Below, piece after piece: positions 743 to 18,581 of a stretch of DNA of 36,506 nucleotides. Positions within the stretch are counted from its first letter, which is position 1. Each line of letters begins with the position of its first letter. The stretch comes from a virus. Lineage: Duplodnaviria; Caudoviricetes. The stretch spans positions 1 through 36,506 of the IMG/VR virus record IMGVR_UViG_3300020045_006155; one strand, given 5' to 3'. Under the pieces are notes generated by a model that was not told where the DNA came from, did not search any database, and saw only the letters and a list, made by a program, of their open reading frames with translations. The position numbers were made by a program, and so were the translations under genes.

Positions 743-988
743 TTATGCGACTACTGGCCTAATAGTATTTATATACGCATCATATCCTTTGTTAATTGTT
801 ACGACCCCTTTTTCAGTACGGATTATAAAATCAATTCCATCATGATCAAGTACCCCTTTTGTTGGCCCCACCCACATGTTAGGATTTTCTACGCTAAAAT
901 ACACATTAGTGCCTATTGCGATTGCTCCATATGCGTTGTGCATAACAGTGCGCTCAACCGGAGCGCGGTCGTTTGGTTCTTTGTTCAT
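743..988 (-). CDS. Hypothetical cassette protein (MNKEPNDRAPVERTVMHNAYG...)
   Basis: 3' part of ORF 743..1150; ATG at 988 is preceded by GGAG inside attC 940-1028; stop TAA lies in GTTATGC at 742-748. Confidence 0.65.
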   Translation of the reverse strand: MNKEPNDRAPVERTVMHNAYGAIAIGTNVYFSVENPNMWVGPTKGVLDHDGIDFIIRTEKGVVTINKGYDAYINTIRPVVA

Positions 989-1028
989 ATTGTCTCCTGG
1001 GCCGAGCCCGGTTAGCTTTGCGTTAGGC
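940..1028 (+). mobile_element. attC site (type 1)
   Basis: GCATAAC-agtgcg-CTCAACCGG...CCGGTTAG-ctttgc-GTTAGGC; the extra C in L'' (CTCAAC vs GTTAG) fixes the top strand as +. Confidence 0.88.
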
Positions 1029-1199
1029 ACCAAGTTTTTTGTCACCAATGCGCTTAATAGTTTGCCGAAAACCACACCACTTACACCAAAGCTGTGTATC
1101 TCCTTCAGGATAAATTGGGGGAGCATAATGCCAATTGTAGCGATGGGCAATTCGCATTAATGGCCTGTAAAGCCATCTGTAAAATAGCGTTTTAATCAT
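1023..1199 (-). CDS. Small hypothetical cassette protein (MIKTLFYRW..., CxxC)
   Basis: Part of ORF 1023..1247; stop codon falls in R' of attC 940-1028; the frame is open back into attC 1205-1301. Confidence 0.6.
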   Translation of the reverse strand: MIKTLFYRWLYRPLMRIAHRYNWHYAPPIYPEGDTQLWCKWCGFRQTIKRIGDKKLGA

Positions 1200-1204
1200 G
1201 TGTT

Positions 1205-1301
1205 GTATAACTCTTAGTTCAAGCGGACAAGCCGCCATGTAGCGCATTTGCGCGGTTAAAGTTCAGTGTGTGGCGGCTTTCCGCTTAACACGGCGTTAGC
1301 G
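1205..1301 (+). mobile_element. attC site (type 2)
   Basis: GTATAAC-tcttag-TTCAAGCGG...CCGCTTAA-cacggc-GTTAGCG; same box layout as classical aadA-type attC. Confidence 0.9.
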
Positions 1302-1803
1302 CATCAACACCGCTCACCATCCCGGTCTGTGGCGTATATACCGCGCTCGGCGCATACCCGCCTTGTGCCACGCGCAGCCAGCCCTCGTAACTAGCACCTT
1401 CGTTGCCAAATGCACTTGCGTTGTTGTCCGTCAACCACCGCGCCAGTTCTTCAGCCGTCTCAAAAGCGGGGCTTATTGGCGTGCCTTCACTGGTGTTCTC
1501 GTACAGCATAAGGTGCGTTCGCTGTTCTGCCGGCCAGTCTGGCATGTAGTCGTCGCGGTGCGGGCGCTGGCCTGCCCACTGCTCGTAGCACATTGCGCGG
1601 CTCTCCGCATCGTCGCAGTAGTCGGGCCTCCATCCTGCTTTCCACTTGGCGCATTCTTCGTCCCACTCATCCACTCTTGGCTTGTAGTCCTCGCCCGGAT
1701 ACAGCGGCTTGTAGAACTCCCCCATGCTCCCGGTGCGCCAGTCGTGTTTCTGTTCTTTCGGGTGTTGCCAGTTGGCCGGTACGCGCCTTACTTCTCTTCC
1801 CAT
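1285..1803 (-). CDS. Phage-type hypothetical protein, cassette-borne
   Basis: 172-aa GC-rich ORF MGREVRRVP...; reads through R' and stops at TAA in L' of attC 1205-1301. Confidence 0.8.
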   Translation of the reverse strand: MGREVRRVPANWQHPKEQKHDWRTGSMGEFYKPLYPGEDYKPRVDEWDEECAKWKAGWRPDYCDDAESRAMCYEQWAGQRPHRDDYMPDWPAEQRTHLMLYENTSEGTPISPAFETAEELARWLTDNNASAFGNEGASYEGWLRVAQGGYAPSAVYTPQTGMVSGVDALTPC

Positions 1804-1926
1804 CGTCGTCTCTTTAAAATGCTCTCTAAATAATCAATCAACCCGGACGTTCCGAGTTTTCAATTCGTACTTTCTTGGTCATGTGTTATTTCCTATCAGT
1901 TATGCCGAGCTTTGTTTAGGGTAGTC

Positions 1927-1995
1927 GGCTAACCCTACGCTCAAGGTGACGCTTCGCCGCTATCGCGGCTCGCGCACCTTAGCTCTGCGTTATAC
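1927..1995 (+). mobile_element. attC site (short)
   Basis: GGCTAAC-cctacg-CTCAAGGTG...CACCTTAG-ctctgc-GTTATAC with a central GC hairpin. Confidence 0.88.
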
Positions 1996-2619
1996 CCCAA
2001 AGTCCCGGCACTTGATTTTCGTAATAATCCGGTGGCCGTTTCGTGTATTTAGTTCCGTCTTGGGCCTCGCCACAATCCCTTCCGCCTGAAATTCGCCCCA
2101 CGTCGAAATAATCCCGGTCTTCGCCGCTGCGATTGCATCATGCAGCGTTCCTTCCCCGATGATCGGAACTATGTCAACCCCAAGTTTATGCGCCACATCC
2201 TCAACGTCTGCGCGTTGTAGCCACCAGTCGCCCACTTTCACGTCAAACAACACAAAGTCTTGGTCTTGCCGGTAGTTGCCTCCGCCTTTCTGAATCTTCG
2301 CGCCGTAGCCCTCCCCGTAGAGGCAAGCGTCACAACCAAACACATCTTGTATCTTCTCCGCCAATGGTAAAAACTTTTCGTTTAGGCGTGTCACCAGTTG
2401 CGCCGGTATCTGCGCTGAGTCCGTTTTCCCGCCAAATGTAATCCCTCCGCCCTGCGACATCACGCGGATGTTGGTTCCATCGACCTTCTCGGTAAAAACC
2501 CAAGTGTTTCCGGCAAGGAATTCAAACTCTGGAAGTGTCCATTGACCTTCCAAAAGCGTCTTTCCGTTGTGCTCCATATCGCGTTTAAAAAGCGTTTGTA
2601 TCTTGGGGTACTCTTTCAT
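1990..2619 (-). CDS. ATP-dependent RNA ligase (Rnl2-like adenylation domain only), cassette-borne
   Basis: Nucleotidyltransferase motifs EKVDGTN (I), LYGEGYG (III), FVLFDV (IIIa), EGIVARP (IV), KIK (V); stop in R' at 1990. Confidence 0.85.
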   Translation of the reverse strand: MKEYPKIQTLFKRDMEHNGKTLLEGQWTLPEFEFLAGNTWVFTEKVDGTNIRVMSQGGGITFGGKTDSAQIPAQLVTRLNEKFLPLAEKIQDVFGCDACLYGEGYGAKIQKGGGNYRQDQDFVLFDVKVGDWWLQRADVEDVAHKLGVDIVPIIGEGTLHDAIAAAKTGIISTWGEFQAEGIVARPKTELNTRNGHRIITKIKCRDFGV

Positions 2620-2644
2620 TTTTTACTCCGTAGTTGGGTTTGTT

Positions 2645-2740
2645 GTATAACTCTTAGTTCAAGCGGACAAGCCGCATTTAGCGCATGTGCGCGGTTAAAG
2701 TTCTTCGTGTGGCGGCTTCCCGCTTAACACGGCGTTAGGC
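2645..2740 (+). mobile_element. attC site (type 2, near copy of 1205-1301)
   Basis: GTATAACTCTTAGTTCAAGCGGACAAGCCGC...GCGGCTTCCCGCTTAACACGGCGTTAGGC. Confidence 0.9.
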
Positions 2741-2953
2741 CGCACATTGAAAACATCTGGTTACTATCCCAACAAATACACCGCGCGCTATATTTGCCGT
2801 CGATTTTCTATTCCGCTTTTGGATGCTGCAAGACCTCCAAAACTTTAGTTTTCTGGCAGTACGTGCAACACTCCAAAAAACACGGTCAATTTCCTTCGCA
2901 GATGTTTTTAATGTGCGGCCTAACCCATCATTCAACGCGACGCCGTTGAGCAT
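2735..2953 (-). CDS. Small basic hypothetical cassette ORF starting inside attC
   Basis: 72-aa ORF; N-terminus MLNGVALNDGLG is the antisense reading of attC 2918-3005; stop in R' at 2735. Confidence 0.4.
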   Translation of the reverse strand: MLNGVALNDGLGRTLKTSAKEIDRVFWSVARTARKLKFWRSCSIQKRNRKSTANIARGVFVGIVTRCFQCAA

Positions 2954-3005
2954 CGCGGTATTGTTTAAAATTCATCGCACGGCGCCCGCTTAACAGGCGT
3001 TAGCA
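2918..3005 (+). mobile_element. attC site (type 3)
   Basis: GCCTAAC-ccatca-TTCAACGCG...CGCTTAA-caggc-GTTAGCA; centre gtattgtttaaaat is shared with 19574-19658. Confidence 0.8.
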
Positions 3006-3202
3006 CTCATGGCTTCAGCATCACCCACCATCTGCCCGATCTTCCACGGCCCGATGTTCGCGCCGAAGAAGAGTTTTTCTGCGGGTATCGGTTCTTTTGC
3101 TAACGGCGGCAGCAATTGAAACTGGTAGTGGCAAAGCAGTTTTCCAGATTGCCAGCATTCCCGCGCCATTGTTGCCGGGTTGTCATAGATGCAAACTGCC
3201 AT
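2990..3202 (-). CDS. Hypothetical cassette protein (MAVCIYDNPATMARECWQ...)
   Basis: Part of ORF 2990..3238; stops in L' of attC 2918-3005. Confidence 0.6.
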   Translation of the reverse strand: MAVCIYDNPATMARECWQSGKLLCHYQFQLLPPLAKEPIPAEKLFFGANIGPWKIGQMVGDAEAMSANAC

Positions 3203-3205
3203 GAT

Positions 3206-3250
3206 TTTTAACTTCACATTCCCCGACTTCGGAGGCAATTTGCGTTACAC
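3206..3250 (+). mobile_element. Collapsed/degenerate attC
   Basis: TTTTAAC...GTTACAC only 45 bp apart; the flank left of AAC is partly complementary to the cassette start at 2999 (tcatggc...gcatc). Confidence 0.5.
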
Positions 3251-3481
3251 GGCTTCAATGTATATTTCAATGCTAAATCCATCGCCATGATACTCAAGCT
3301 GCACAGCAGATGATGAACATGGCACTGCTTGCCAGTTGTAACAAGGTAACAATGAGGCAATTTCTTTTGCCTTTAATACTGCCATTTTGTTGATTGGAAC
3401 GCCGTCATAGCCATCCCAGCGCCTGGGAAGATTTAAAAAGCTATCTAGTCTGTCATTAATGGAATTTATTTCGATATTCAT
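3245..3481 (-). CDS. Hypothetical protein (MNIEINSIND...WDGYDG)
   Basis: Part of ORF 3245..3532; GGAG precedes ATG 3481; stop in GTTACAC. Confidence 0.65.
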   Translation of the reverse strand: MNIEINSINDRLDSFLNLPRRWDGYDGVPINKMAVLKAKEIASLLPCYNWQAVPCSSSAVQLEYHGDGFSIEIYIEAV

Positions 3482-3560
3482 TACAAATATGCTCCTGTAT
3501 TTGTTTTTAGATACATTTAGACAATTACGCAATGTTTTACGACTATTAGGATGGCTAATT

Positions 3561-3755
3561 CTAGTTATGTTTCACAAGCCCGCAGCTAAATTCTGGCTTT
3601 ATTCCATTTTGCGGTTCAAATGCACCGTGCTTATCTACGCAAGACTTGCAGCGCGTTATCTCACGGTCAGGCGTTGGCGGGTATCCTGAGTAAACCATTT
3701 TCCATGCGCTACCCGGCGCATGGTTGTGAAACTTTCCGCAACAATCGCAATTCAT
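3561..3755 (-). CDS. Small Cys-rich (Zn-binding-like) cassette protein
   Basis: 64 aa with CDCC...CKSC; GGAG RBS; bounded by 12-bp complementary cassette ends. Confidence 0.7.
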   Translation of the reverse strand: MNCDCCGKFHNHAPGSAWKMVYSGYPPTPDREITRCKSCVDKHGAFEPQNGIKPEFSCGLVKHN

Positions 3756-3774
3756 GGTATCTCCGTATCGTGAA

Positions 3775-3865
3775 ACATAACTTTCCGCTCAAGCGGGACG
3801 CGGTGAACGGCATGGTTTTTCAATCGGAGCTTGGGAGCGCCGCGCCCCTTAGCTCCACGTTAGAA
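3775..3865 (+). mobile_element. attC site
   Basis: ACATAAC-tttccg-CTCAAGCGGGACGCGG...CCGCGCCCCTTAG-ctccac-GTTAGAA. Confidence 0.88.
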
Positions 3866-3898
3866 CTCATCCCGTTAGGGCTGCCCATCACTTCCACG

Positions 3899-4150
3899 TT
3901 AGTCATAAACAACTTCTATCGTTATTTTCACTTTTTTATACAAAATATTTGACATCGCCATGATATCGTGCCTAGCAAATCCGGTGAGTTTTATAAAAAC
4001 TTGTGGGCGTATCTCTACTAGCAATCCTCTTTCAAATTCTTCTAAATCTCCCATTTCAACAACACTTCCAGAATATTCCATAATGTATAATCCGTCATTC
4101 AACGTAGACCCGCCGACCTGCGGCGGTTTCGTAGTTTCGCTTGTGTTCAT
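3899..4150 (-). CDS. Hypothetical cassette protein (MNTSETTKPPQVGGSTLNDGLY...)
   Basis: Part of ORF 3899..4186; GAGG RBS and ATG 4150 lie inside attC 4085-4203; stop in GTTAGTC at 3898. Confidence 0.65.
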   Translation of the reverse strand: MNTSETTKPPQVGGSTLNDGLYIMEYSGSVVEMGDLEEFERGLLVEIRPQVFIKLTGFARHDIMAMSNILYKKVKITIEVVYD

Positions 4151-4203
4151 AATTCCTCGCTTTGTTAAATGGCCGTGCCGCGCCAATTACCAGGGTGTTA
4201 TAC
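4085..4203 (+). mobile_element. Degenerate attC site
   Basis: GTATAAT(AAC>AAT)-ccgtca-TTCAACG...GTTATAC; right arm is poorly paired. Confidence 0.6.
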
Positions 4204-4383
4204 ACCAAGATTCCTAGCTAATTGCCTACATAGGCTGCTTGCTTCGCAGATACGAGAATAGACATCATGTAGAAGGTGGGCCATGCATTGATATTTGTCT
4301 AATTCCGGTAAGTTTAATTTTCCTGACAACATTAATAAAATTTTTCTATCTTCTGGATTTAAGTTTTCATGCCACATATTCAT
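4198..4383 (-). CDS. Hypothetical protein, paralogue of 19653..19838
   Basis: MNMWHENLNPEDRKI... conserved in both copies with mostly synonymous changes. Confidence 0.75.
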   Translation of the reverse strand: MNMWHENLNPEDRKILLMLSGKLNLPELDKYQCMAHLLHDVYSRICEASSLCRQLARNLGV

Positions 4384-4565
4384 AAATTCATATCCTTAAG
4401 AGATTTTCTTATTAATGGCGCTATTTCATCCCACAAATCAACGTTAACTAGCATTTTAATGCTGACATTGGCGGCCATACTATCAAACATTTCAACAACA
4501 AATAGCAAGTCCATTGTATCATCGTCAATACACTCAAACCGCGTTGGATATATTTTAGTGCTCAT
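4380..4565 (-). CDS. Hypothetical protein, paralogue of 19835..20020
   Basis: YPxRFEC...VNVxLWDEIAPLIR conserved in both copies; 4-bp overlap with the next gene. Confidence 0.75.
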   Translation of the reverse strand: MSTKIYPTRFECIDDDTMDLLFVVEMFDSMAANVSIKMLVNVDLWDEIAPLIRKSLKDMNL

Positions 4566-4626
4566 TGTAATACCACAATTTTGATAATGTAGCTGGCCGC
4601 AAAATAGCCAGCTACGATAAAAAACT

Positions 4627-6249
4627 TTAATAATAATAATAAAAAAATGGCACTGTCACATTGGTGCAAAATAATTCATCCGGGGTTCCAGCTAATCCAT
4701 AGCTGACCGTGAAACCGGCCAGTTGACAGGCTTTTGCTGCTTCGGAAATGACTTGTGGAGGAAAATTAGCAGGACTCCATCGACATGTTGAAGGCCAGCA
4801 CCACGCCAATGTTTTAGGCGGCTCAACTGGAGCCGTACAAACATCAGTGAGTAATTTATTTAACGCAGCAACCGGCTGAATAACGCCACACCTCGCATTG
4901 ACATAACTGTTCTGATTATTAATAACCCAATTAGCTATATTCAACCCGGTGTCAGGAAGGTTAGTTGAGAACACAGGTAATTTAACGGCGGTATCACAAA
5001 GCGCTTTTTTGATTTGATCCGGTGTTGCATGAATTTTTCCTCCTGATTTTAACCGGCACTGATCCTGTAAAATACTCTGAATGGCGTTGCCCTTGTTAGC
5101 TGCCTGTGATGACCCACCGTATTTACCGTCAGCATAAGCGACGGAATCCTGGGATTCACTGTAAAAAACGGGCATATTAGGGTTGCCATCAACGATACTG
5201 ATGCTGCCATCGGCATTAACGACCGGCCTGCTACCGTCCTGAGGGATTACCAGATCAGGGCCATCGGGGCCGTAGCTGGTCGTTTGCTGATAGCCATACA
5301 GGTATTTTTTAACTGCTCCGTAAGTGATGATATTGTCGTCATATGTGTTTGTATCAGCCTTTTGTTTGTTTTTATTGCCGATGGCTTGCGCAATAACGAT
5401 ACCCTTGTCATGGGCTCGTTTAAACGCATTCTTCTCTTTAGCGGATTTGGAGTGATAGTTACCAAACGGTCTACCTATACTGCACTCATCCGCTAGGGTG
5501 CATTTGTCTATAATATCGTTCATGGCCTTCATAGATAGGGCGTGTAGGACATCTTCACCCGAAATTTGCGTTACTTCGAGTCCGATTTTGCCGTAGGATA
5601 ACGACGCGATAGCATTAACCCCCATAGTGCCGTGACTGGTGGTTGTTAATTCGTTAGTGAATTGCAGCGGGGCCTCATTATCAACAAAACTTTTTGCAAT
5701 GATTTTATCGAAATAGCCCGGCAATAATTGATTTTGCCAAACCACAGAGTCAATGGTGTACGCAATGGGTTTTTTATCGTCTGTGGGTAGCAACTTGCTT
5801 TGCAATTCCGTGTAATTAACGCTTGAACCTAGGCCTTTCAAATCATACGGGCCAACTAATGAAAATGTTTTATCATCTTCATCGATGCTATCGAATACCA
5901 GACATGGGGCATTTTCCTCAATAAATAATTTCGCCATAAACAAAACCATATCAAATATGTCATCTTCAATCTCGTCATGAACTGTTGGTAAATTTCGATA
6001 GTATTTTATTGGTGTTGACCATACCTCCAGCTGTGTCCATTGATTTCTGTCCAGATAGAGAATATCTCCGACATAAGGATCAGTGTCAGCCGATATGACA
6101 TACATCCCTTCGGAATTGGCCTGAGTATTAAACTCCTCAGTGGTACAGTTAGGGGCTTTAACGACCCTGATACCGTCAACATTAGCGGCATTAGCATTAG
6201 TGTGAGCGGTTATTGATACCAGCGCTATTAACGCTATTAGTGTTTTCAT
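4627..6249 (-). CDS. Secreted subtilisin-like (S8) serine peptidase, divergent
   Basis: Signal peptide MKTLIALIALVSITAHTNANA; ordered S8 motifs YTIDS (Asp), SHGTMG (His), AIGN (oxyanion Asn), GGSSQAA (Ser); Cys-rich C-terminal tail. Confidence 0.75.
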   Translation of the reverse strand: MKTLIALIALVSITAHTNANAANVDGIRVVKAPNCTTEEFNTQANSEGMYVISADTDPYVGDILYLDRNQWTQLEVWSTPIKYYRNLPTVHDEIEDDIFDMVLFMAKLFIEENAPCLVFDSIDEDDKTFSLVGPYDLKGLGSSVNYTELQSKLLPTDDKKPIAYTIDSVVWQNQLLPGYFDKIIAKSFVDNEAPLQFTNELTTTSHGTMGVNAIASLSYGKIGLEVTQISGEDVLHALSMKAMNDIIDKCTLADECSIGRPFGNYHSKSAKEKNAFKRAHDKGIVIAQAIGNKNKQKADTNTYDDNIITYGAVKKYLYGYQQTTSYGPDGPDLVIPQDGSRPVVNADGSISIVDGNPNMPVFYSESQDSVAYADGKYGGSSQAANKGNAIQSILQDQCRLKSGGKIHATPDQIKKALCDTAVKLPVFSTNLPDTGLNIANWVINNQNSYVNARCGVIQPVAALNKLLTDVCTAPVEPPKTLAWCWPSTCRWSPANFPPQVISEAAKACQLAGFTVSYGLAGTPDELFCTNVTVPFFYYYY

Positions 6250-6366
6250 GTTTTCTCCGGGGTTGTAAATAGGTATTATTTCTTAAATGACTCTAACTAC
6301 TAACTGCAAAGCGCTTTGGTTTTTGGTAGAGCCATTTAAAAATAAGAACCCGTCTTGTGGGTAATA

Positions 6367-6435
6367 CGGTAATCTCCCGAGCCAAAAGGAGGTAGAACTA
6401 ACTACAAACTCGTGATTACTGACAGTGTTTTTCAG
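6367..6435. repeat. Exact 69-bp direct repeat, second copy 7304-7372
   Basis: cggtaatctcccgagccaaaaggaggtagaactaactacaaactcgtgattactgacagtgtttttcag occurs twice. Confidence 0.95.
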
Positions 6436-6450
6436 GCCGGCGGTGTAAAA

Positions 6451-6586
6451 TGGGACGAGGGGAGGGATTCGAACCGCCAACCTCCGCTATGTAAATTAGA
6501 GTTTCCGTGATCAGCGGCCCCTCTAGGGGTACTTTATTCATGACTATTTCCCCCAGCGGCGCTCTAACCAGTTGAGCTACCCCCGT
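6451..6586 (-). tRNA. tRNA-Val(UAC)-like gene with a 59-nt insertion in the anticodon arm
   Basis: Acceptor ACGGGGG/CCCTCGT plus CCCA; D-arm GCTC-AACTGGTTA-GAGC; stem CCGCT/AGCGG; loop remnant TTTACAT; T-arm GGCGG-TTCGAAT-CCCTC. Confidence 0.7.
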
Positions 6587-6589
6587 AAA

Positions 6590-6982
6590 TTAATGGTGCC
6601 CGTACTTAAAAAAGTATCGTCGGGCACGAAGCCAGATTGGGTTTCCTGTGGCATTCTTAACCCAGAAACCCCATCTACGCTTGGTTTTTCCTGTTACAAC
6701 TATCGTCCAACATCCGTTCGTTTTCACGGTATGTTTGTGTTCCGCTTTCCTAAAACGAACCGTGCCAAAAGACATAAACTCTTCGCCCTGTTCGGTCACA
6801 TCGAAATATGAGCCTTTTATAACAAAACAAACAAAATCCCAAGCGTGATCGTGAAAAGCTCTTGGGTCATCCCCGTAAAACCAATGGTGCAACCGGATCG
6901 AAAAGCTATCGTTACCAACCACCCATCTTTGCAAATACGGTTTGCCTTCCTTGCCTAGTTTCTGTCCCCACACGACTTGCAT
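6590..6982 (-). CDS. Phage cupin-fold protein
   Basis: RLHHW...FHDHAWDF...GSYFD...EHKHTV resembles a metal-binding cupin; GGAG RBS. Confidence 0.65.
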   Translation of the reverse strand: MQVVWGQKLGKEGKPYLQRWVVGNDSFSIRLHHWFYGDDPRAFHDHAWDFVCFVIKGSYFDVTEQGEEFMSFGTVRFRKAEHKHTVKTNGCWTIVVTGKTKRRWGFWVKNATGNPIWLRARRYFFKYGHH

Positions 6983-7001
6983 CGAACATTCTCCAATTTT
7001 G

Positions 7002-7224
7002 TAAAGTAGCCAGGATCCTTGCCGTTAAAGGGCTAACGGTAACACGCTGTGGTTTCCAACCGTCGGGGAGCCCGGTACGCCCACACTAAGCCTTTTCCTA
7101 TATCCCAAGCCCGATGCTGCAATCCCCTGGCACCGTCGTCGCTTAAAGCTCTTTGGCTACTTTAGAAAACTCTACAAGGCTGTAGTAATCAATAGCTTGC
7201 AGCCGTCTCGTAGAGTTTTCTAAA
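7002..7224. ncRNA. Candidate structured non-coding RNA(s)
   Basis: Intergenic; 11-bp closing stem 7002-7012/7154-7164 around a GC-rich core, and a 15-bp stem 7161-7175/7210-7224. Confidence 0.4.
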
Positions 7225-7467
7225 ATAAGCCGCCCTCCGGGGTGCGCTGATCTTACGAGAAGCGTAGAGGGTTTTTCAATCACTGTTCGTCTCGTGAACA
7301 ACTCGGTAATCTCCCGAGCCAAAAGGAGGTAGAACTAACTACAAACTCGTGATTACTGACAGTGTTTTTCAGAAACCCCGCACCTCTGCCTGACATCAGG
7401 GTCTGGGATACGCCCAGCTCGTAGTTCCAAACTATGTTAAATATTCTACTCTCATTTAAGCTGTAGG

Positions 7468-7701
7468 TCAAGTGCTATTTGTTAAATGTTTCAAAAGAGT
7501 ATCTATTTCTCGTTTCGGGGCCATGAGCAGTCGGGTATAAATGCGGCGCATTAACCCTGCGCCATGCCGATTCTTTGCGCGGCGCAGTATAGCGCGGTGG
7601 TCACTGCCCAATTCAAAAGCTACGCCCATTTCTACTAGCGTATCCTGAAGTGCATGTAGTTTATCTGGGGGTAGATTAAATATCTGGTTAGCCAGAGACA
7701 T
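7468..7701 (-). CDS. Hypothetical protein
   Basis: 77-aa ORF co-oriented with neighbours. Confidence 0.6.
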   Translation of the reverse strand: MSLANQIFNLPPDKLHALQDTLVEMGVAFELGSDHRAILRRAKNRHGAGLMRRIYTRLLMAPKREIDTLLKHLTNST

Positions 7702-7827
7702 AGACGTACCCCCGCAATAATATTATCGCCCAGATAAAAAACGATGCCCATAACGCGGACAGTGCTCCGTATATCCACCACAGCATGAATACTTTACGAG
7801 ATTTTTTAAGTTGCATTAGCGGCCCTT

Positions 7828-8193
7828 TTATACGCTATTTCCCAGGTATTTATCTGATTTTTGTGCTCTGAGCATCAGTTTATACCCGCCAAAGAGGAGT
7901 CCTGGAAGTTCGCATGAGTATTCTTTAAGCGTTTCGATGCAGTCTTCAATCATACTACCATGACTCCAGCAGACGCATTTAATGCTATCAGTAGTGTAAC
8001 TTCTAAGACTCAGGCACCGAGCGCACGTCTTGTAGCTTGTAATCGCTCCATCCCACTTTGCCGAAACGTGCTCGTATTTCTCTTTAATAGCTATTAACCC
8101 ATAACACTCATCGCATCTGTGGGTTTTGCGGGCAGTTCTTATTGTAGCCACATAAAATTCTGGCTGCTCCCAATCACAATCGCATGGCATCAT
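7828..8193 (-). CDS. Cys-rich phage protein (probable Zn-binding)
   Basis: RTARKTHRCDEC...KTCARC pattern. Confidence 0.7.
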   Translation of the reverse strand: MMPCDCDWEQPEFYVATIRTARKTHRCDECYGLIAIKEKYEHVSAKWDGAITSYKTCARCLSLRSYTTDSIKCVCWSHGSMIEDCIETLKEYSCELPGLLFGGYKLMLRAQKSDKYLGNSV

Positions 8194-8221
8194 TTACCCT
8201 CTTTCGTAAAGCCTACTGATT

Positions 8222-8548
8222 TCATTGATCTTCACAATATCCGCAGATACCGTTTTCATCGACTCCTTCTTCCCCGAATAGGCCACATTGAGGGCAAACG
8301 TCCATATCGACAATAACGTGGGCTTCTCCGGCGGCTAATTTAGTTTGGTTCGCATTTTTAGACAGCATTACGGTATTTTTCCGCAATACTCGGACGGCCA
8401 TTTGCATCCAAGAAGTGTCGAATAATCCCCGCATTACCGGCCAGCCTATCTTCCGCGCTTCTTTGGAGTCATGCGCGAAAATGAGCACAGCGCCTTCTGC
8501 GGATCCTTCAGCAGAATCATACCCCATATAAATCTTAAGTGGTTTCAT
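8222..8548 (-). CDS. Hypothetical protein with C-terminal CxxC pairs
   Basis: CPQC...CGYC; overlaps the upstream gene. Confidence 0.65.
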   Translation of the reverse strand: MKPLKIYMGYDSAEGSAEGAVLIFAHDSKEARKIGWPVMRGLFDTSWMQMAVRVLRKNTVMLSKNANQTKLAAGEAHVIVDMDVCPQCGLFGEEGVDENGICGYCEDQ

Positions 8549-8741: not shown

Positions 8742-8763
8742 TAATTCCTCTCTTTAATTTTTA

Positions 8764-10491: not shown

Positions 10492-10727
10492 TGGTTATCC
10501 CATCGCAGAGCGTCATATCTACCTGTAAAGACGCCCCAAGCTAACCGTACGCGGGTTAAAAAACCGCCGAGCGATAAGGGACGTGCGGGGAACCATGTTT
10601 CTTGGTCTGAAAAAGTAAAAGTGGTTAGCCCAACGCTATCCGTCTTAGGAGCTAATTTAACTAGCGGCCAAGGGAATTCCCGGTCAGCTAGATCCCGTGC
10701 TAGGATTATCTGAGGTGCCTGCTTCAT
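10488..10727 (-). CDS. Hypothetical phage protein
   Basis: WFPARP...RLAWGVFTGRYDALRW; GGAG RBS. Confidence 0.7.
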   Translation of the reverse strand: MKQAPQIILARDLADREFPWPLVKLAPKTDSVGLTTFTFSDQETWFPARPLSLGGFLTRVRLAWGVFTGRYDALRWDNQ

Positions 10728-10842
10728 TCTACAATCTCCTGATAAACTATCCTAACGCTCTTATAGAAATACCAATCAGGTTCCTGCGGGAACAACGTGG
10801 GGAAATCGGTATCCTCGTAATCCCAAACTAGCCAGCCTATTT

Positions 10843-12321
10843 TCATTTCAGCCCCCTTCGTGCTAACCCTTCTTTTAGCGCTGCTTGTACTGTCATCTTC
10901 GTCTCCAGTCGTCTGAGGATGATTTCATCTACTGTATTACGGGCAATAATCTGGTGGATAAAAACCGGTCTATCTAAACCGGCTTGAAATTGTCTGACTT
11001 TACCTATTCTAGCTATTACCTGATCTCGCGTTTCGGCGTTCCAGTCAACTGAGAAGAAGCACATAATATTCGTAACGTGCTGCCAGCCGTCTATCCCGTG
11101 CCCCGCACTTGCCGGGTGGATGAATAAAATAGGAATTTTCCCAGCTTTAAAATTATCCTCTGTTTCTCGCCTCGTGTCAAGTGCTCTACCCTCGGGGAAA
11201 GCTTTTTGTAGTCTGGCTAGATCGGATTTAAATTGGTAAACTACGATAACCGGCATTCCCCCAGCTTCTCCAATCACGTCTCTCAAGGCTTCCAGCTTCT
11301 CATCGTGAATTGCCTCCCAAGTGCCCTTATCGTCGTGGTATAAAGCTCCGTTAGCGAGCTGGTGGCACTTCATGCTCTTGGTAGCCGCCGTAAATGCCTC
11401 GACCTCACCCGCTTTAATCACGGTGTAAAGCTCCTTTTCCATTTCGTCGTAATGCTTACGCGCCTTGCCAGTAATATCAATGTAGATCGTATTAACGATT
11501 TCTTCCCCCAGATCTAGGTAATCTTCGGCTCGAAGTGTAAAAGTGGTCGGTGCGATAGCGGCGCGTATTTCTCTTTCCGCATGGGGTAGCATAATTTTAT
11601 CGTAGCCATTGTAATCGGTTTTATACCAGCGATCTTCAAAAGCTGTGTAACTAGTGCCTAAAGAAGCGCCTTTATCGATAAACCAGTTCGGGCCCCACAG
11701 ATCGCCTAGGGAATTAGGGGAAGGCGTACCGGTGAGGTTAATCCACCGGCGTGTCTTCTTCCAGGCCAGATGCGTTAGCGCCTTAGTACGCGCACCGCAG
11801 CTCGGGGAGTGGCAAAGATATCTAGTTCCTTGCTTATTCGTTTGCCAGTATACGCGATGACTTTTTAATTTGGTTGATTCGTCTGCGACAATAGTGCGAA
11901 ACGGCCATTTGCTCTGAAGGTATTTAGTTAACCAAACAATATTTTCGTAGTTAATGGTGTAGATTGGTACATCGCGCTTTAAAGCAGCTATGCGCTGTAA
12001 AGGATCTCCGACAATAGGCGAAATCTCTAAGCCGTATAGATGGCTCCATTTTTCTAATTCGGCACTCCATGTCGATCTGGCGACCCGCGACGGGGCTAAG
12101 ATCAATGTAGGCTTATATTCGCCGCAGGTATAGAGAGTATCTAGGGCATTCAGTACCATAATCGTCTTCCCTAATCCCATATCGACATGGAGATTACATC
12201 GCTCATGCTCCAGGATAAATTTAGTGCCTGCAGCTTGATAAGAGCGGGGCGTGAAGGGTTTGCGGATCAAAGCAAGTCCTTTTGTAAAACGATCCACGGT
12301 AGCCCTGATAGCCATCCACAT
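10843..12321 (-). CDS. SNF2-family (SF2) DNA helicase; true start may be near 12270
   Basis: DMGLGKT, ADEST, LTGTPSPN, HPASAGHG, QVIARIGKVRQ. Confidence 0.92.
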   Translation of the reverse strand: MWMAIRATVDRFTKGLALIRKPFTPRSYQAAGTKFILEHERCNLHVDMGLGKTIMVLNALDTLYTCGEYKPTLILAPSRVARSTWSAELEKWSHLYGLEISPIVGDPLQRIAALKRDVPIYTINYENIVWLTKYLQSKWPFRTIVADESTKLKSHRVYWQTNKQGTRYLCHSPSCGARTKALTHLAWKKTRRWINLTGTPSPNSLGDLWGPNWFIDKGASLGTSYTAFEDRWYKTDYNGYDKIMLPHAEREIRAAIAPTTFTLRAEDYLDLGEEIVNTIYIDITGKARKHYDEMEKELYTVIKAGEVEAFTAATKSMKCHQLANGALYHDDKGTWEAIHDEKLEALRDVIGEAGGMPVIVVYQFKSDLARLQKAFPEGRALDTRRETEDNFKAGKIPILFIHPASAGHGIDGWQHVTNIMCFFSVDWNAETRDQVIARIGKVRQFQAGLDRPVFIHQIIARNTVDEIILRRLETKMTVQAALKEGLARRGLK

Positions 12322-12478
12322 GAATACTGATGAATTCTTACAGTGGAACCAATATCATTTACGATGATCCACATTGGCCCGTAGTCATGCTGCGCCGCGT
12401 ATAACCTATACGGCGTTATATATCGCCTACAGATTTTAGAGGGCACTTTTCTCACATAAACAAATGCTGTTCGCTTGG

Positions 12479-12625
12479 TCAAAGCAACTCCTCGTAGTTA
12501 CCCGTATAGCTATCCGTTAATACCGGATTAATTCGGTTCCCAACCCACTGCATAACGGGTTCCGCGAAATCTTTCCAGGCCATAGACGCGGCTTCTATGC
12601 CGCTAAATAAGGATAAATATCTCAA
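12479..12625 (-). pseudogene. Internally deleted C5-cytosine DNA methyltransferase remnant (48 codons)
   Basis: Translates LRYLSLFSGIEAASMAWKDFAEPVMQWVGNRI...: motif I (FSGIE) joined directly to a C-terminal helix like that after motif X (PVMxWxGxRI). Confidence 0.7.
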
Positions 12626-12728
12626 AACTCTTCACCTACCGAACATTTAGGTTACTGAACAAAAAGGATTGCGAGCAACAGGTGTTCAGGCTGCTTTTGG
12701 CCGCTAAGCCTAGCTCGCAAATTTGGTT

Positions 12729-13781
12729 TTAGCCTAACAAAAAGTTAAGCCATTTACCCATCGACCTAACATTATATCGATGAAGATCCAACCAATTTTT
12801 CTTAGCGATGGTAAATTTATCCCCTGTGTGAAGATTCATTAACTTTTCTAAAATAGAATCAGATAACGAGGTATCCGCATACCTTGAAGAATCAAGCCAA
12901 TTGATGTCCTTGCCTACGATCACGGGTACTAGCTCATTGACGGCATCCGCAGCGGTGATATTGAATGTTTCAGTCAGAGAGACTTGTAAGCAAACGTCCA
13001 TTTGGCGAATTAGGGTCAGAAAATCTTTACGCTCAAGCCAGGGATGTTCCATCAGGACGTGCCCACTGTTTTCAAATAACGCTCGTAGATTTTTCAGTAC
13101 GTTATTTCCGCGTTGCTCTACACGAGCACTATTAATATGGAACACTAATGCTTTACCGATGTCGTTAGCAAAACGGATTGCGGCCATCGCCTGAATCAAT
13201 TGATTCTTTAACGGCCTTACAGCGCCGAAACATCCGATGTGAACCTCTGTTTCAGAAAGTATCTTCTGTTTTCGACCTTTGGTGAATTCGAAATAGTTAG
13301 GTAGTAGAACTGTTTTATCTGTAGAAAGCGGTATGGCTAACAGGTCTTTGATTAATAGGGGTGAATTGGGCGCTACAAGGACATTGCCAAGAGGAATAGC
13401 GTAATATTTTTTAAGCCATTCTATCGCCACTCCTTCATTGGCCAGAAAAGGCGTATTGCTATGGACGCGTACCACCCACGTTATTTTAGGATATAGTCGC
13501 GCCAGCAGTTCTACTTTTTCTGGTACAACCCATAGGGCTTCAATGAATACGTGCGTTGGCCCAACACGAACGACTTCCCGCTCTATACTATTGTTGTCTA
13601 CGACGGCTACCGTCTCGGAAGCGATACCCGCACTATTCAGCATGTTCGATACAAATTTCGCGGAATTAAAAAGACCTGAAGTTAATTCTTTCGCATAGCC
13701 CTCGGTTGTCGTAGCACTGTATTCGTGACGAAGTTTCGTTATAAAGAGGGCGGACGGTAAATCGCAATGCGCGGACAACAT
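12729..13781 (-). CDS. Glycosyltransferase, GT-B/GT4-like
   Basis: HIGCFGAVRPLKN, MDVCLQVSLTETFNITAADAV...VPVI. Confidence 0.75.
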   Translation of the reverse strand: MLSAHCDLPSALFITKLRHEYSATTTEGYAKELTSGLFNSAKFVSNMLNSAGIASETVAVVDNNSIEREVVRVGPTHVFIEALWVVPEKVELLARLYPKITWVVRVHSNTPFLANEGVAIEWLKKYYAIPLGNVLVAPNSPLLIKDLLAIPLSTDKTVLLPNYFEFTKGRKQKILSETEVHIGCFGAVRPLKNQLIQAMAAIRFANDIGKALVFHINSARVEQRGNNVLKNLRALFENSGHVLMEHPWLERKDFLTLIRQMDVCLQVSLTETFNITAADAVNELVPVIVGKDINWLDSSRYADTSLSDSILEKLMNLHTGDKFTIAKKNWLDLHRYNVRSMGKWLNFLLG

Positions 13782-14082
13782 TTATTAGCTCCGAATAAAA
13801 AAAATAATAGTATACCGTATTTCGTATACCGTTGCGTAGCGGTTGCTATCTAAAATAGCCTCTTCTGTCCTGGATCCAGGAACCAGTCTATCCAGATATG
13901 GCAAGTTTTTGAAGAACAATATTTTTTGTTTAGTGAAGTGAAAAGCCCCAGGTTTTCGCTTCCGCAACGGGGGCATTTTTTAGTTGTTACCTTAACGGGA
14001 TCTTTTCTTTTTGACATACTTCCCCTTCGGCCACGCCAAAATAAGTGCGAGGGCCATTAAAAACAAGACATCGCCGAAATGG

Positions 14083-14391
14083 TCAAAATGTATTAGTGTC
14101 AGGAGCATAATATTTCACCTGGATATAGTAGAGTAATTTGTCTATTTTATCCTTAGTGTCACACATAAAGCATTCGAATCCTAGGGTACGCAATCGGATA
14201 AATGCGCGTTTTTGAGCCGCCCTAAGATCTTTTCCAGGGCGTTTCGTTTCGACAAAAAGGCAAACTGCATTGGGCAGCAAGCAAATTCGATCTGGCTCAC
14301 CCCGACGAATTTCGTACTTATGGATCTGAGCATCAGGGAACTGTCGTTTAAAAGAACCGACTAGATGCTCTTCAACAGTTGCTTCCTTCAT
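14083..14391 (-). CDS. VRR-NUC domain nuclease
   Basis: MKEATVE...GEPDRICLLP...FVETKRPGK...Q; standard partner of the SNF2 helicase in these phages. Confidence 0.85.
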   Translation of the reverse strand: MKEATVEEHLVGSFKRQFPDAQIHKYEIRRGEPDRICLLPNAVCLFVETKRPGKDLRAAQKRAFIRLRTLGFECFMCDTKDKIDKLLYYIQVKYYAPDTNTF

Positions 14392-14484
14392 TAACGGTAT
14401 ATCCGGCACAGCAGGAGCGCTACTAGGTATACCAGCGCCATCAGTTCTACGCCGTGCTTGAATGTGTCCCAAATTTCTGGCATA

Positions 14485-14667
14485 TCATTTCTCCGAATTT
14501 ATTTTAAAATCGCAGGTGTCCAATAGCGGGAGTATTAGCGTATTGACGTAGGAGTAAACGCGCATCGGATCGTCCAGCGGGATTGTCAAGAAGCGTTTAC
14601 ACGATTCTTTCTCACCGCATCGATAGCCGTAGCACCGGGTTATATCAGAATATAAGGGCCTACTCAT
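14485..14667 (-). CDS. Small Cys-rich hypothetical protein
   Basis: DITRCYGYRCGEKESCKRF; part of ORF 14485..14700. Confidence 0.55.
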   Translation of the reverse strand: MSRPLYSDITRCYGYRCGEKESCKRFLTIPLDDPMRVYSYVNTLILPLLDTCDFKINSEK

Positions 14668-15277
14668 AGAAAGCAGCCTCCCCCGTATAGGGCAAAACAT
14701 CGCGAAAGATAAGCCGTATCGCGTTAGCGATATCTCTATGCTCTTTTTGGGTATATCTTTCCGAGCGCAATCGCGAAAAATGAATCCAGCTTCGGATAGA
14801 TCCAGTCATATATAATCGAGTCGTTGCCGTTTCCAACAACAAAAATCTAGCGCATTCTTTCGATACCCCGACGGCCAGAGCGAAACGATACGCTGTGAAA
14901 GATAGCCACTGCATAACTTTTTGGGTAGCTCTAAACACCCAATTCTTGAAAGGCGATAACGGGGTCTCTGAGGATTGTCTTTCTTTAACCCCTGGCATCC
15001 GGCCATCGTAGGTTTCGAAACTACACGCCTCTGCGTACCGTTGGCTGAACTCCGAGAAGACAAACGAACGATGCCGCAATATTTGCCGTCCTATAGTCCT
15101 CGAGGTGGTTATCTCAATCGTCATGTGCGCATGCTCGAACACTGACCAATGCCCTCGGCGAATACAAGAGCCGAGTAATTCAGTTTTTCCCGAAGTTTGG
15201 TCGTTACTGGATACCCGAGCAATATAGAGCATAGTTTGCTCAGCATCAGGGGTGAGCGCAATTAGTCTTACTTGCAT
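14660..15277 (-). CDS. thyX: Flavin-dependent thymidylate synthase
   Basis: GHWSVFEH, RQILRHRSFVFSEFSQRY (RHRx7SxR), ECAR, TQKEHR. Confidence 0.93.
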   Translation of the reverse strand: MQVRLIALTPDAEQTMLYIARVSSNDQTSGKTELLGSCIRRGHWSVFEHAHMTIEITTSRTIGRQILRHRSFVFSEFSQRYAEACSFETYDGRMPGVKERQSSETPLSPFKNWVFRATQKVMQWLSFTAYRFALAVGVSKECARFLLLETATTRLYMTGSIRSWIHFSRLRSERYTQKEHRDIANAIRLIFRDVLPYTGEAAFYE

Positions 15278-15488
15278 TATCTACCTCATTTGCCTCTGAA
15301 TTTTAAAGTATTTCGGTATTCACCGATTTCGCGTAAGCGCTCTAAACGTGCTTTTTGTGAAGCGTCCTTTTCAGGGGACACCAATGTAAATAGCCGCATC
15401 CACGGACTGCGTTTTTTAGGGGGATTGGACATTATTTCTCCTGATAAATATACGTTACTAGTATAGCATATGCTAGGTGAATTATCAA

Positions 15489-17687
15489 TTATTTGTGGTA
15501 AGCGTAATCGCTAAAGCCTTCAGCGGCCAGCGGAATGCCTTCCGCCCACGGCGGTACAGTTGCCATGATCTTTTCCAGGTGCTGAACAGAATATTCCTCG
15601 GTATCGGGTACTTCACAAACTAATTCATCGTGGACGGGCAGGATAACGTTATAGCCTTGTCGTTCAGCTTCTAGCTGGCCGTACTTAAAAATATCACGGG
15701 CTAAAGCCTGTGTTGCATTTTCCACCAGCTTTCCTGCGAAAGTTTCTATCCAGCCCCACTTTTTAGTAAACTGGTTAACACCCTTAAATCGCAATTTCCC
15801 TTCGTGTATCTCCATGCCCGGATAACAGAGCGAATGCCCACTCGGTAACACCATACGCACCCATTTTCCGGTTCGTCTAGCGTAACAATTATTCCCAAAA
15901 TAAAAATTCTTATTGGGTATTTCCACGGCATTTCTACAAGCCGCTTCAGTATCAGCCCACAGTTTGACCGTCGCGGGGTGTTCCCGACGCCATAGCCGTT
16001 TCAAGCTGTCACACACTGTAAAAACATCGAAGTCCAAGTATATCGTTCGTTTACGATCCATGTGTTGCAGCCATGACTTAGGGGTGTCCGTCTTTTCAGC
16101 TTTTTTTCTAGCGTCTTTAATGTCTTGCTCTTCTAGCCACCCATAGAAGCTGATAGCTTCGTCCATAATACTTTTAGGGATACTGCTCTTGGCTAAACTA
16201 ACTAAATCTTCCAGGTTAACACCCACCGATGTCGCAAAAGTGATGAACGCGGATACGCCCCCATGATAGCCCATACTCAGTTCCAAAGGCTTACCGATTC
16301 CGTTTCGTTGCTCTTTAGTAACGTTATCCGGTAGGACGTTAAATGCTTTTGCATACGCTAATTTATATAAATCTGATCCTATCCCGGCATCGTATTCCCG
16401 GTAAGCTTGTAACTTCCATTCTTCCCCCGCTAGAAAGGCCAAAACTCGACCCTCGATACCGGCTAAATCCGAGATCAGTAGTTTCTTACCTACCGGGGCG
16501 GTGATTGTGTAACGTAACGCGGACTGTGTTAGCCACATCACATCCAGATTGAAAATTTCTTCTAACCCCTGTTTTAATGCTTCGATGCCAAATTTAGTAT
16601 CGTCTATATTCATTAATCCCCGCGAGGGGAGATTTTGCGGTTGGAATCCATTAGTACCGGCATCTCTCAGTGTTCTGGATGCGCCTGCGAATTTTATAGT
16701 CCCTCGTAATCTACCATCTTTTGAAGTTGCTTGTACCATACGCTTATACTTAGCCGTTGACGTAGTACAAGTGCTTAATCGCACTTCTAATAGATCGCGT
16801 AACGCAGGGGGTGTCTCTTCATCTTCTATCAGGCGATTTAGGGTTGCTTTTTGCATATTTGGCAGCTCTAGCCCATACTCTGCCAGAATATGCTTTAGCA
16901 TTTCATCGCGTTGGGAAGCGTTATCCACTGCGCCATTTGTCATCGCTTTAGTCGAGCAGGATAACTGCGCTTGCGCCGTCGATATGGCGTTCATAGCCCC
17001 TTGGACTAATTTCAGATCAATATTCATGCCGCGATTATTGACGCGCTGATCCATCCGCCATAACTCGACCTCATGCGCGTTACCTGGGTAATTCCATTTC
17101 GGGATTTTCTTAACAATCTCGCGCATGGCCTCGGTGTCATTTACGCAATAGTCTTTGTACCGCGCCCAATCTTCAGGGTGGGTTTCCGGTGTGTTCCATC
17201 TGTATGTGATCCCGTCTTTCAGATAGCCGCAAGGTTTGCAAAATAATCTCACCAAGCGGTGTCCATCTATTATCTTCTTAGCGTCCTCCCGGATGCCTAG
17301 CACTTCGCCTAGTTTTTCTAATCCTCCCGGTAGCCCATGCGATAGAGCCTGCGCCATTGAGCACTGAAAACGCTCGATGCTTAGATCCCAGTCTTTCTTG
17401 CGGCGCGATAACCGGCGAAGATGCGGCTTGGTAGCTATTAAAACGGAACGGTCAAAAAATACGTTATGGAATTGTAAAATCACTGACGGATCTTCTAAGG
17501 CACTTTCCAATTCTTCCGGCATTATTTCACCATCTTCAGGACTCCAGATTTGTACGGGGTCGTCATTCCGCGCAAAAGAAAAAAGCTGAACCCTTGTAGA
17601 AGGATGTTCAGCATATTTCGCGGTGCCAGCGGATTTTAAGTCACATTCGCTTTTTGTTTCTGTGTCTGACCATAGAATATCGGGCAT
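15489..17687 (-). CDS. Phage family A DNA polymerase with 3'-5' exonuclease
   Basis: DTET (ExoI), YCVND, QPQNLP, DLAGIEGR (motif A), RNGIGKPLELSMGYHGG (B), VHDELV (C). Confidence 0.95.
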   Translation of the reverse strand: MPDILWSDTETKSECDLKSAGTAKYAEHPSTRVQLFSFARNDDPVQIWSPEDGEIMPEELESALEDPSVILQFHNVFFDRSVLIATKPHLRRLSRRKKDWDLSIERFQCSMAQALSHGLPGGLEKLGEVLGIREDAKKIIDGHRLVRLFCKPCGYLKDGITYRWNTPETHPEDWARYKDYCVNDTEAMREIVKKIPKWNYPGNAHEVELWRMDQRVNNRGMNIDLKLVQGAMNAISTAQAQLSCSTKAMTNGAVDNASQRDEMLKHILAEYGLELPNMQKATLNRLIEDEETPPALRDLLEVRLSTCTTSTAKYKRMVQATSKDGRLRGTIKFAGASRTLRDAGTNGFQPQNLPSRGLMNIDDTKFGIEALKQGLEEIFNLDVMWLTQSALRYTITAPVGKKLLISDLAGIEGRVLAFLAGEEWKLQAYREYDAGIGSDLYKLAYAKAFNVLPDNVTKEQRNGIGKPLELSMGYHGGVSAFITFATSVGVNLEDLVSLAKSSIPKSIMDEAISFYGWLEEQDIKDARKKAEKTDTPKSWLQHMDRKRTIYLDFDVFTVCDSLKRLWRREHPATVKLWADTEAACRNAVEIPNKNFYFGNNCYARRTGKWVRMVLPSGHSLCYPGMEIHEGKLRFKGVNQFTKKWGWIETFAGKLVENATQALARDIFKYGQLEAERQGYNVILPVHDELVCEVPDTEEYSVQHLEKIMATVPPWAEGIPLAAEGFSDYAYHK

Positions 17688-17754
17688 ATTTTCTTGATAT
17701 CTAGTATGTTATTTGTGAGGGGGAATGAGTGGGGTGCGTTTGGTAAATCGGCAT

Positions 17755-18135
17755 CTACGTACTCCTGCTCTTAGTCAGCGCTTCCAAGAATTCGCGCACC
17801 CTCGGCATCACGTATTTGTCGCGCACACGCTCAACAACACAGCAACTTCCGTTGTGACGCTCCTCCCATCGGCGACAGCGCCACTTGTGAGTTTCCAGTT
17901 CCTGGCTAAATCGATAGGTGTTCCACTCGATGTTCATACCGCCATCCCATCGCCAAGACCAGTCCGCTGCCATCTCGTGTTCTTCGAGCGCCATCAGTTC
18001 CGCGTCTGATCTATCTACCAGTCTAGTCAGCACCTCGTTAACATCTTCCACTGTCACAGCAACCATTTCATTCTCCTTTTTCGTCTCCGGCATAACTCGG
18101 CGCTCAACCGGAGCGCGGTTATAATCTTCGTTCAT
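17755..18135 (-). CDS. Hypothetical cassette protein starting inside attC
   Basis: N-terminus MNEDYNRAPVERRVMP is the antisense reading of attC 18090-18178. Confidence 0.7.
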   Translation of the reverse strand: MNEDYNRAPVERRVMPETKKENEMVAVTVEDVNEVLTRLVDRSDAELMALEEHEMAADWSWRWDGGMNIEWNTYRFSQELETHKWRCRRWEERHNGSCCVVERVRDKYVMPRVREFLEALTKSRST

Positions 18136-18178
18136 TATTCACTCTTCAGGGCCGCGCCCGGTTAGCTTTGCGTTATAC
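18090..18178 (+). mobile_element. attC site (type 1, same family as 940-1028)
   Basis: GCATAAC-tcggcg-CTCAACCGGAGCGCGG...CCGCGCCCGGTTAG-ctttgc-GTTATAC. Confidence 0.9.
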
Positions 18179-18580: not shown

Positions 18581-18581
18581 T

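Follow-up and report, generated by a model that had tools for sequence, protein, structure and literature searches.

Inverted integron-type cassettes with probable translation starts inside their attC sites in a phage genome fragment

Integron cassettes are usually regarded as bacterial, promoterless units that are read from a single strand. Here, we examine a 36,506-nucleotide (nt) stretch of phage DNA (Caudoviricetes; IMG/VR record IMGVR_UViG_3300020045_006155), hereafter the window, which is the entire record and represents a linear phage fragment of 36.5 kb, estimated to be 39% complete. We propose that the window probably carries phage integron-type cassettes whose genes lie on the bottom strand of their attC recombination sites and that, in a subset of long attC sites, a ribosome-binding site and an ATG in the loop are likely to start the cassette's own gene. 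Sequence comparisons support the putative in-attC translation start as genuine and specific to one strand in long phage attC sites, and they place it in one mobile unit with the gene. An earlier, sequence-only reading had held more broadly that attC sites double as start and stop modules for the cassette genes.

The window also encodes a polymerase, a helicase, a primase, and a thymidylate synthase, and nearly all of its genes are on the minus strand. Its attC-type sites, named here by their first position, fall into two clusters, array 1 (1 to 4203), which extends to the record end, and array 2 (18090 to 20797). Full attC sites number eight, all of them on the plus strand, and the minus strand has none; degenerate and half sites occur as well. 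Full sites have paired L''/L' boxes flanked, at a spacing of 5 nt, by RYYYAAC and GTTRRRY boxes, together with an extrahelical base, and the two-arm attC pattern matched five times in the window versus never in 100 shuffles. When bottom strands were folded as DNA, sites 1927 and 18090 were canonical throughout, sites 1205, 2645, and 20734 formed the central stem, and site 19574 was partially canonical, while sites 940, 2918, 3775, and 4085 were noncanonical. With two attC clusters and no integrase within 36.5 kb, the window is a cluster of attC sites lacking an integrase (CALIN). BLAST of two window sites against plasmids returned chance matches only, and ARAGORN and Rfam scans of the arrays found nothing. 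No attC site was found near the polymerase in the closest relative, the only syntenic one (L328; polymerase 67% identical), or in 12 more distant ones; because L328 is syntenic at the polymerase and lacks attC there, array 2 appears to be lineage specific.

The orientation of the cassette genes can be read against the R100 aadA1 cassette, whose coding strand runs TAAC-N5-GTTCAAGC; this orientation was taken directly from the sequence, as the 60-nt aadA1 site escapes the detector used here. In the window, the TAAC-N5-GTTCAAGC strand is the plus strand and the genes are on the minus strand, and therefore every window cassette gene is inverted, lying on the attC bottom strand rather than on the canonical top strand. 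For wider comparison, an attC detector was trained on the window sites and the first pattern matches from viral and bacterial sets. The viral sample comprises the matches listed in pattern scans of viral contigs, to which all viral site and cassette counts refer, and the bacterial sample comes from pattern scans of bacterial genomes, with orientation assigned by a mechanical rule of open reading frame (ORF) coverage; one genome, G047 (L475), was excluded from every count. Among 114 viral cassettes, 49 were inverted, 19 normal, and 46 ambiguous, compared with 8, 78, and 23, respectively, among 109 bacterial cassettes. Mostly inverted cassettes were found on 32 of 70 viral contigs versus 1 of 42 bacterial contigs or genomes. 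Cassettes here are also shorter, with a median length of 258 bp compared with 532 bp for canonical ones.

Strand-specific start signals accompany these sites. A Shine-Dalgarno (SD) motif followed by ATG was present on the bottom strand of the interior in 58 of 258 viral sites versus 1 of 179 bacterial sites, and shuffled viral interiors gave a mean of 10.6 and a maximum of 21 across 300 shuffles. For sites of 86 to 160 nt, the signal was found on the bottom strand of 56 of 158 viral sites (50 of 137 sequence clusters) and on the top strand of 4; the corresponding bacterial sites, drawn mainly from one order, had it on the bottom strand in 3 of 119 (2 of 68 clusters) and on the top strand in 16, all in one cluster. 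Long sites were present in 1 of 201 Burkholderiales genomes. The notion that translation starts within attC is supported for long phage sites but is not general, since among the 109 viral sites no longer than 85 nt, only 3 carry the signal. An ORF that continued for 40 or more codons outside the site was observed for 50 of 65 loops with SD and ATG versus 51 of 163 with an ATG and no SD (p = 5e-10), and in-frame loop-start ORFs occurred on 42 of 153 viral contigs and on 0 of 97 bacterial ones.

For 47 loop-started ORFs, the frame used encodes VERxV in 34 and LSxxL in 13, and a second SD start lies downstream in just 4. Eight of the 47 match PHROG profiles, and all eight align from the R'' exit onward, two of them at profile positions 2 to 3. 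The in-frame loop ATG is kept despite differing loops in several groups of homologous genes (L385/L102/L364/L416, L338/L454, L450/L488, and window ATG 4150 with L537); in three L385 homologs, an ATG is found solely at or after R''.

Within the window, SD strength was expressed as the energy of the anti-SD duplex, which is about -6 kcal/mol for well-formed phage genes there. Three of the five in-site starts named in the sequence-only reading hold up, as each has a strong SD inside the site and no better start downstream: ATG 988 (-7.4 kcal/mol, versus -2.2 for the next in-frame ATG at 943), ATG 4150 (-7.8, versus -3.3 for ATG 4081), and ATG 18580 (-6.1, with the SD within the R''-L'' spacer of a degenerate site). 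The SD and AUG of 988 and 4150 are predicted to be unpaired in RNA folds of the isolated sites. The sole homolog of ORF 743 to 988 lacks the attC-encoded peptide. For ORF 3899 to 4150, 7 of 10 homologs start at Met 4081 and one starts MNKDYNRAPVERRV; one homolog is similarly extended, with an in-frame ATG 20 codons upstream in DNA that represents a decayed site. The other two named starts were rejected as main starts. ATG 18135 scores -2.4 kcal/mol versus -8.7 for ATG 18066 outside the site, and 66 of 119 homologs of this gene start at query position 25, beside Met 18066. ATG 2953 scores +1.7 kcal/mol, has no SD, and overlies a hairpin RNA (z -7.4); its ORF (2735 to 2953) had one weak repeat-type match (E 8e-4) and no real homolog among 1.84 billion proteins. 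Two further starts, 18951 and 19151, had gone unnamed, and here two half sites run straight into an SD and ATG. Altogether, 16 ORFs have their 5' end next to a site or site remnant, and for 5 of them the SD lies inside it (988, 4150, 18580, 18951, and 19151). The remaining 11 genes start outside their site, which contradicts the idea that each cassette has its own in-site initiation signal.

The stop codons that had been assigned to the sites are real. The TAA codons at 743, 1023, 1990, 2735, 3245, 3899, 4198, and 19653 are the complement of the GTTA core, those at 1285 and 2990 are the TTA of L', and ORF 18957 to 19151 reads through as YNAELTG, with the qualification that stops 3245 and 3899 lie in decayed right halves and that the sequence containing 743 is not an attC site but an 18-nt attI-like core. 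As a special stop module, however, the arrangement does not survive comparison, because it mirrors the bacterial norm: the gene ends at the R' TAA in 21 of 49 inverted viral cassettes and at the R'' TAA in 27 of 78 bacterial ones, and a stop overlapping attC is the majority case in bacterial integrons, according to the accessible text of PMC11511950. We therefore reject the R' stop as a novelty.

The attC-encoded peptides had been offered as a protein-level barcode of the system. RAPVERTVM, RAPVERRVM, LNDGLY, and LNDGLG are indeed present in the conceptual translations, but the bottom strand encodes PVERxV in 31 of 267 viral attC sites and in 30 of 242 bacterial ones, and a control set of 255 kb of DNA lacks it. 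PVERxV marks attC DNA, not translation, and indicates the loop-start system only as a predicted N terminus.

A family of 89-nt sites bears on where the ATG came from. Sites 940 and 18090 match a Methylobacter integron attC at 63 of 89 and 69 of 89 positions, respectively; that attC has normally oriented flanking genes and a loop without ATG. In a pattern survey of the family that covered viral contigs, 19 of 33 viral copies had an ATG at a distance of 46 to 49 nt from the R'' end, compared with 0 of 5 Methylococcales integron copies, and 11 of these 19 loop ATGs open long ORFs. Viral and bacterial loops of this family are two or three substitutions apart. The simplest reading would be that the ATG was gained in the phage lineage. 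Bottom strands of attC sites are described as purine skewed (PMC5027507, in its accessible part), and such skew would make the gain of an ATG easier. These relationships suggest a Methylococcales-like host.

Further comparisons concern the mobility of the cassettes. R' and R'' were complementary at the two ends of the same cassette in 36 of the 49 inverted viral cassettes, compared with 11 of 49 for the linear site and a shuffle maximum of 14; complementary R boxes can be read directly at both ends of the window cassettes that begin at 743, 1990, 2735, 3565, and 18173. Four contig pairs had the site interior in common with the R'' flank only, no pair had it in common with the R' flank only, and 11 pairs shared a flank without the interior. 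From the R-box match and the sharing of interiors with the R'' flank, the crossover would therefore be canonical (G|TT), and the loop would move with the gene. Between-phage similarity also breaks at the canonical G|TT point, and identical site-plus-gene units have different neighbors in L121/L153, L365/L383, and L399/L422.

Of the 50 viral records searched for IntI (49 with cassettes and one control), one has it, and 14 of 15 near-complete cassette-bearing phage records have none. The exception, G402 (L522, L530, and L532), a near-complete provirus record, combines IntI with an attI-like core, and its inverted cassettes lie on the IntI strand, a layout in which new cassettes would enter at the transcript 3' end. 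Its IntI is at the record end and is possibly of host origin. In G299 (C5, 78820 to 79150; L488 and L536, 14821 to 15150), an inverted phage-type cassette is the first cassette of a normal bacterial integron. Its body is 97% identical in protein to viral L450, with homology stopping at the AAC of R', and it has an in-frame loop ATG with no SD by the rule used. Also, some genes occur both inside and outside cassettes. At least L004, L005, L006, and L011 carry the RNA ligase gene as an inverted cassette, and L001 to L003, with its closest relatives, carry it as a plain gene. For the 58-amino-acid gene at 1023 to 1199, 25 relatives were examined, and one of them has an attC arm upstream; both genes are plain in most phages and cassettes in a few.

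We propose the following sequence of events. An IntI integrase, mostly the host's, would excise and insert the cassettes, and inversion would place the gene 5' end against its own attC. The purine-rich attC loop could then acquire an ATG and SD through point mutation, and the gene would be translated through one hairpin arm, giving a leader of 15 to 30 residues. Selection may retain the loop start because the gene body often has no other start. Some loop ATGs may make only a short leader peptide and may pass ribosomes to the next start. Later loss or decay of the R''/L'' arm would leave the start in place and the gene fixed.

Alternatively, loop starts might be a by-product of purine-rich bottom strands and tight packing, with real initiation at the R'' ATG or downstream. 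That account holds for the 18135/18066 gene, fits the known purine skew (PMC5027507), and agrees with the start of most 3899 to 4150 homologs at Met 4081. Nevertheless, we judge it quite improbable, given that shuffles preserving composition reached at most 21 signals versus the 58 observed, that matched-length bacterial sites had just 3 in 119, that the presence of an SD predicts in-frame ORFs, and that 43 of the 47 loop-started ORFs lack a further SD start. It is also unlikely that the loops chiefly serve regulation, with an mRNA hairpin that would keep the internal start closed off until it is opened by a ribosome terminating at the stop in R' or L', thereby coupling neighboring cassettes. 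The starts in half and decayed sites survive without a hairpin, the SD and AUG of sites 940 and 4085 are predicted to be unpaired, and deletion of attC barely changed downstream expression in most of 10 cassettes, albeit for the other strand (PMC11511950, available portion). Nonetheless, stops lie 35 to 55 nt upstream of loop starts within the same hairpin, predicted folds of the 47 loop-started ORFs leave the SD mostly unpaired in only 14 and the ATG in 25, and eight short leaders terminate near the next start; in class 1 integrons, moreover, top-strand attC hairpins and small ORFs are described as altering downstream translation (accessible text of PMC8876359).

A further possibility is that the arrays are immobile fossils and that loop starts arose after decay as a rescue of stranded genes, outside any working mobile unit. 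The half and degenerate sites of the window and its weak DNA folds are in keeping with it, as is the lack of IntI in all but one of the near-complete records. We regard it as very improbable, however, because identical site-plus-gene units recur beside different neighbors, a cassette with an in-frame loop ATG heads a bacterial integron in G299, and many loop-start sites pass the full attC filter.

Several observations weigh against our proposal that inverted phage cassettes start their own genes from long attC loops. The record, at an estimated 39% completeness, has no match to the tyrosine recombinase family PF00589, and because the window is without an integrase, we infer the recombining enzyme. 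Sites 940 and 4085 may have stopped recombining, since their DNA folds no better than shuffles. Only 5 of 16 window genes start in a site, and two of five named starts fail. In the broader sample of 114 viral cassettes, 46 had no assignable orientation and 19 were normal, and both sites detected in the published phage TJE1 are normal, so not all phage arrays are inverted. The long bacterial control comes mainly from one order, and 39 of the 47 loop-started ORFs have no PHROG match. Finally, just 10 of the 19 loop ATGs of the 89-nt family satisfy the SD rule, 8 of 19 yield short peptides, and the comparison behind the phage-lineage gain is unrooted.

If the proposal is correct, a single element of 90 to 120 nt would be a single-stranded DNA recombination substrate, a ribosome-binding site, and a coding sequence, and such a cassette would bring its own translation start along when moving. 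It predicts misannotated N termini in many phage proteins and suggests that phages shuffle accessory genes with host integrases. More tentatively, and with more doubt than confidence, we posit that long phage attC sites are gene-capture and expression devices, in which a built-in start would translate any frame joined at R'', such that phages might mint backwards cassettes from ordinary genes and trade them with host integrons. This idea draws on the RNA ligase and 58-amino-acid genes being plain or cassette borne, on gene bodies that begin at the R'' exit, and on the one cassette in a host integron. If true, it would offer a testable handle on the unsolved problem of cassette birth.

The remaining features of the window can be laid out in order, with all genes on the minus strand and all sites and cores on the plus strand. 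Array 1 opens with a DNA methyltransferase cassette gene (31 to 674) in two frames (405 to 674 and 31 to 351) that ends at the TAA of the R' core at 30 to 36; an intact homolog is an inverted cassette in G402, and methyltransferases related to this gene recur adjoining viral attC sites. An 18-nt attI-like core, TAA-N5-GTT (731 to 748), is the source of stop 743. This core and the one at 3553 to 3570 are two copies of CTAATTCTAGTTATG and resemble TAA-N5-GTT cores upstream of IntI in G402 and L224; they are possibly attI sites or attI scars within the phage array, and the attI-like 15-mer showed no enrichment among 121 Methylococcales genomes (2 matches). The 81-amino-acid ORF at 743 to 988 has its likely start, ATG 988, in the loop of the 89-nt site at 940 to 1028, with SD AGGAG at 998 to 994; the SD and AUG lie in the predicted RNA loop, and the DNA fold is weak (z -0.71).

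Next, the common phage gene of 58 amino acids (1023 to 1199) starts just beyond R'' with a weak SD and stops in the R' of site 940. A 97-nt attC (1205 to 1301) is followed by a 172-amino-acid ORF (1285 to 1803) that stops in L' and by a 69-nt attC (1927 to 1995) with a canonical bottom-strand fold (z -4.5). The RNA ligase cassette gene (1990 to 2619) has its own SD outside the site and perfect R'/R'' complementarity. Beyond a 96-nt attC (2645 to 2740) lies a likely noncoding cassette (2734 to 2924), in which ORF 2735 to 2953 is probably spurious; its minus-strand RNA is predicted to form a three-way junction with a 26-bp closing helix joining its ends (z -7.4), and it had no Rfam match and no copy among the fetched loci. 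The attC at 2918 to 3005, with a one-base deletion in the L'-R' spacer, is the source of stop 2990. Three small ORFs (2990 to 3755; stops 2990, 3245, and 3561) are separated by a decayed right half (3229 to 3250) and the attI-like core at 3553 to 3570, and a 91-nt attC occupies 3775 to 3865. The 83-amino-acid ORF at 3899 to 4150 has its likely start, ATG 4150 with SD GAGG, in the loop of a degenerate long attC of 119 nt (4085 to 4203), where the SD and AUG are unpaired in the predicted RNA fold; its family core begins at ATG 4081. Two overlapping 61-amino-acid ORFs (4198 to 4565) have a second copy at 19653 to 20032. They are part of a duplicated module of about 650 bp (4197 to 4848 and 19652 to 20312; 87 to 89% identical) that comprises two small ORFs, a hairpin, and upstream noncoding DNA; both copies start exactly at an R' core, heading an array's end. 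Further repeated non-attC intergenic motifs, some containing an SD, precede small early genes (6351 to 6435, 7288 to 7372, and 33954 to 36310).

At array 2, a 103-amino-acid gene (17755 to 18066) has its likely start at ATG 18066 outside the 89-nt attC at 18090 to 18178, the loop of which holds ATG 18135 with a weak SD. A likely noncoding cassette (18172 to 18335) with a perfect R'/R'' match follows; the minus strand of 18180 to 18325 is predicted to adopt a tRNA-like fold with a T-loop-like GGUUCGAUCC (z -3.6), for which ARAGORN and Rfam were negative. The 58-amino-acid ORF at 18404 to 18580, which had no match among GenBank phages, takes its SD GAGG from the R''-L'' spacer of the degenerate attC at 18581 to 18666, a member of the 1205/2645 family. 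Half attC sites feed both the 91-amino-acid ORF from ATG 18951 (18676 to 18996) and the 64-amino-acid ORF from ATG 19151 (18957 to 19188). For the former, the half site at 18962 to 18996 retains a loop remnant that holds the SD, and this half site matches the loop of a longer copy in L493; for the latter, the half site is at 19155 to 19188, and the ORF runs through the next half site as YNAELTG. A 115-amino-acid ORF matching phrog_21617 (19190 to 19537) has its own SD outside the site. An 85-nt attC (19574 to 19658) is the source of stop 19653; tandem R''-like boxes, GCCTAAC and then GTATAAC, lie at 19561 to 19580, and the first fits the cassette's own R'. A 64-nt attC (20734 to 20797) is the last site of array 2.

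Phage CALINs (PMC9892861) and top-strand mini-ORFs in attI1 and attC (PMC8876359) are already known, as given in the accessible parts of both sources; a literature search with little coverage of subscription journals found no description of inverted phage cassettes or bottom-strand loop starts. According to the available text of Qi et al. (2023), phage genomes contain integrase-less attC clusters with methyltransferase cassettes, and five of six tested sites recombined with IntI1, with the bottom strand preferred (PMC9892861). The window likewise has attC clusters without an integrase and a methyltransferase cassette; that portion of the source does not mention gene inversion or starts in attC, and the two detected TJE1 sites have normal polarity.

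Canonical integron cassettes, both class 1 and sedentary chromosomal, share with those described here the R''-L''-L'-R' anatomy, the extrahelical base, the G|TT crossover, complementary R boxes, and a frequent core-site stop. They differ in that here the gene is on the bottom strand, the cassettes are shorter, and the start can lie in the cassette's own attC. The attC sites of Methylococcales chromosomal integrons (89- to 93-nt family; L459, L463, L468, and L473) are sequence relatives of sites 940 and 18090 but, unlike the phage copies, have normally oriented flanking genes and no loop ATG. ORF-11 of attI1 and small attC ORFs, attributed to Jacquier et al. (2009) in the accessible text of PMC8876359, likewise combine a recombination site with a translation start that helps genes without their own. 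Those are top-strand mini-ORFs that act by reinitiation on the next cassette, whereas the signal here is on the bottom rather than the top strand (56 versus 4 of 158 long viral sites), lies mostly in the frame of the cassette's own gene, and would move along with it.

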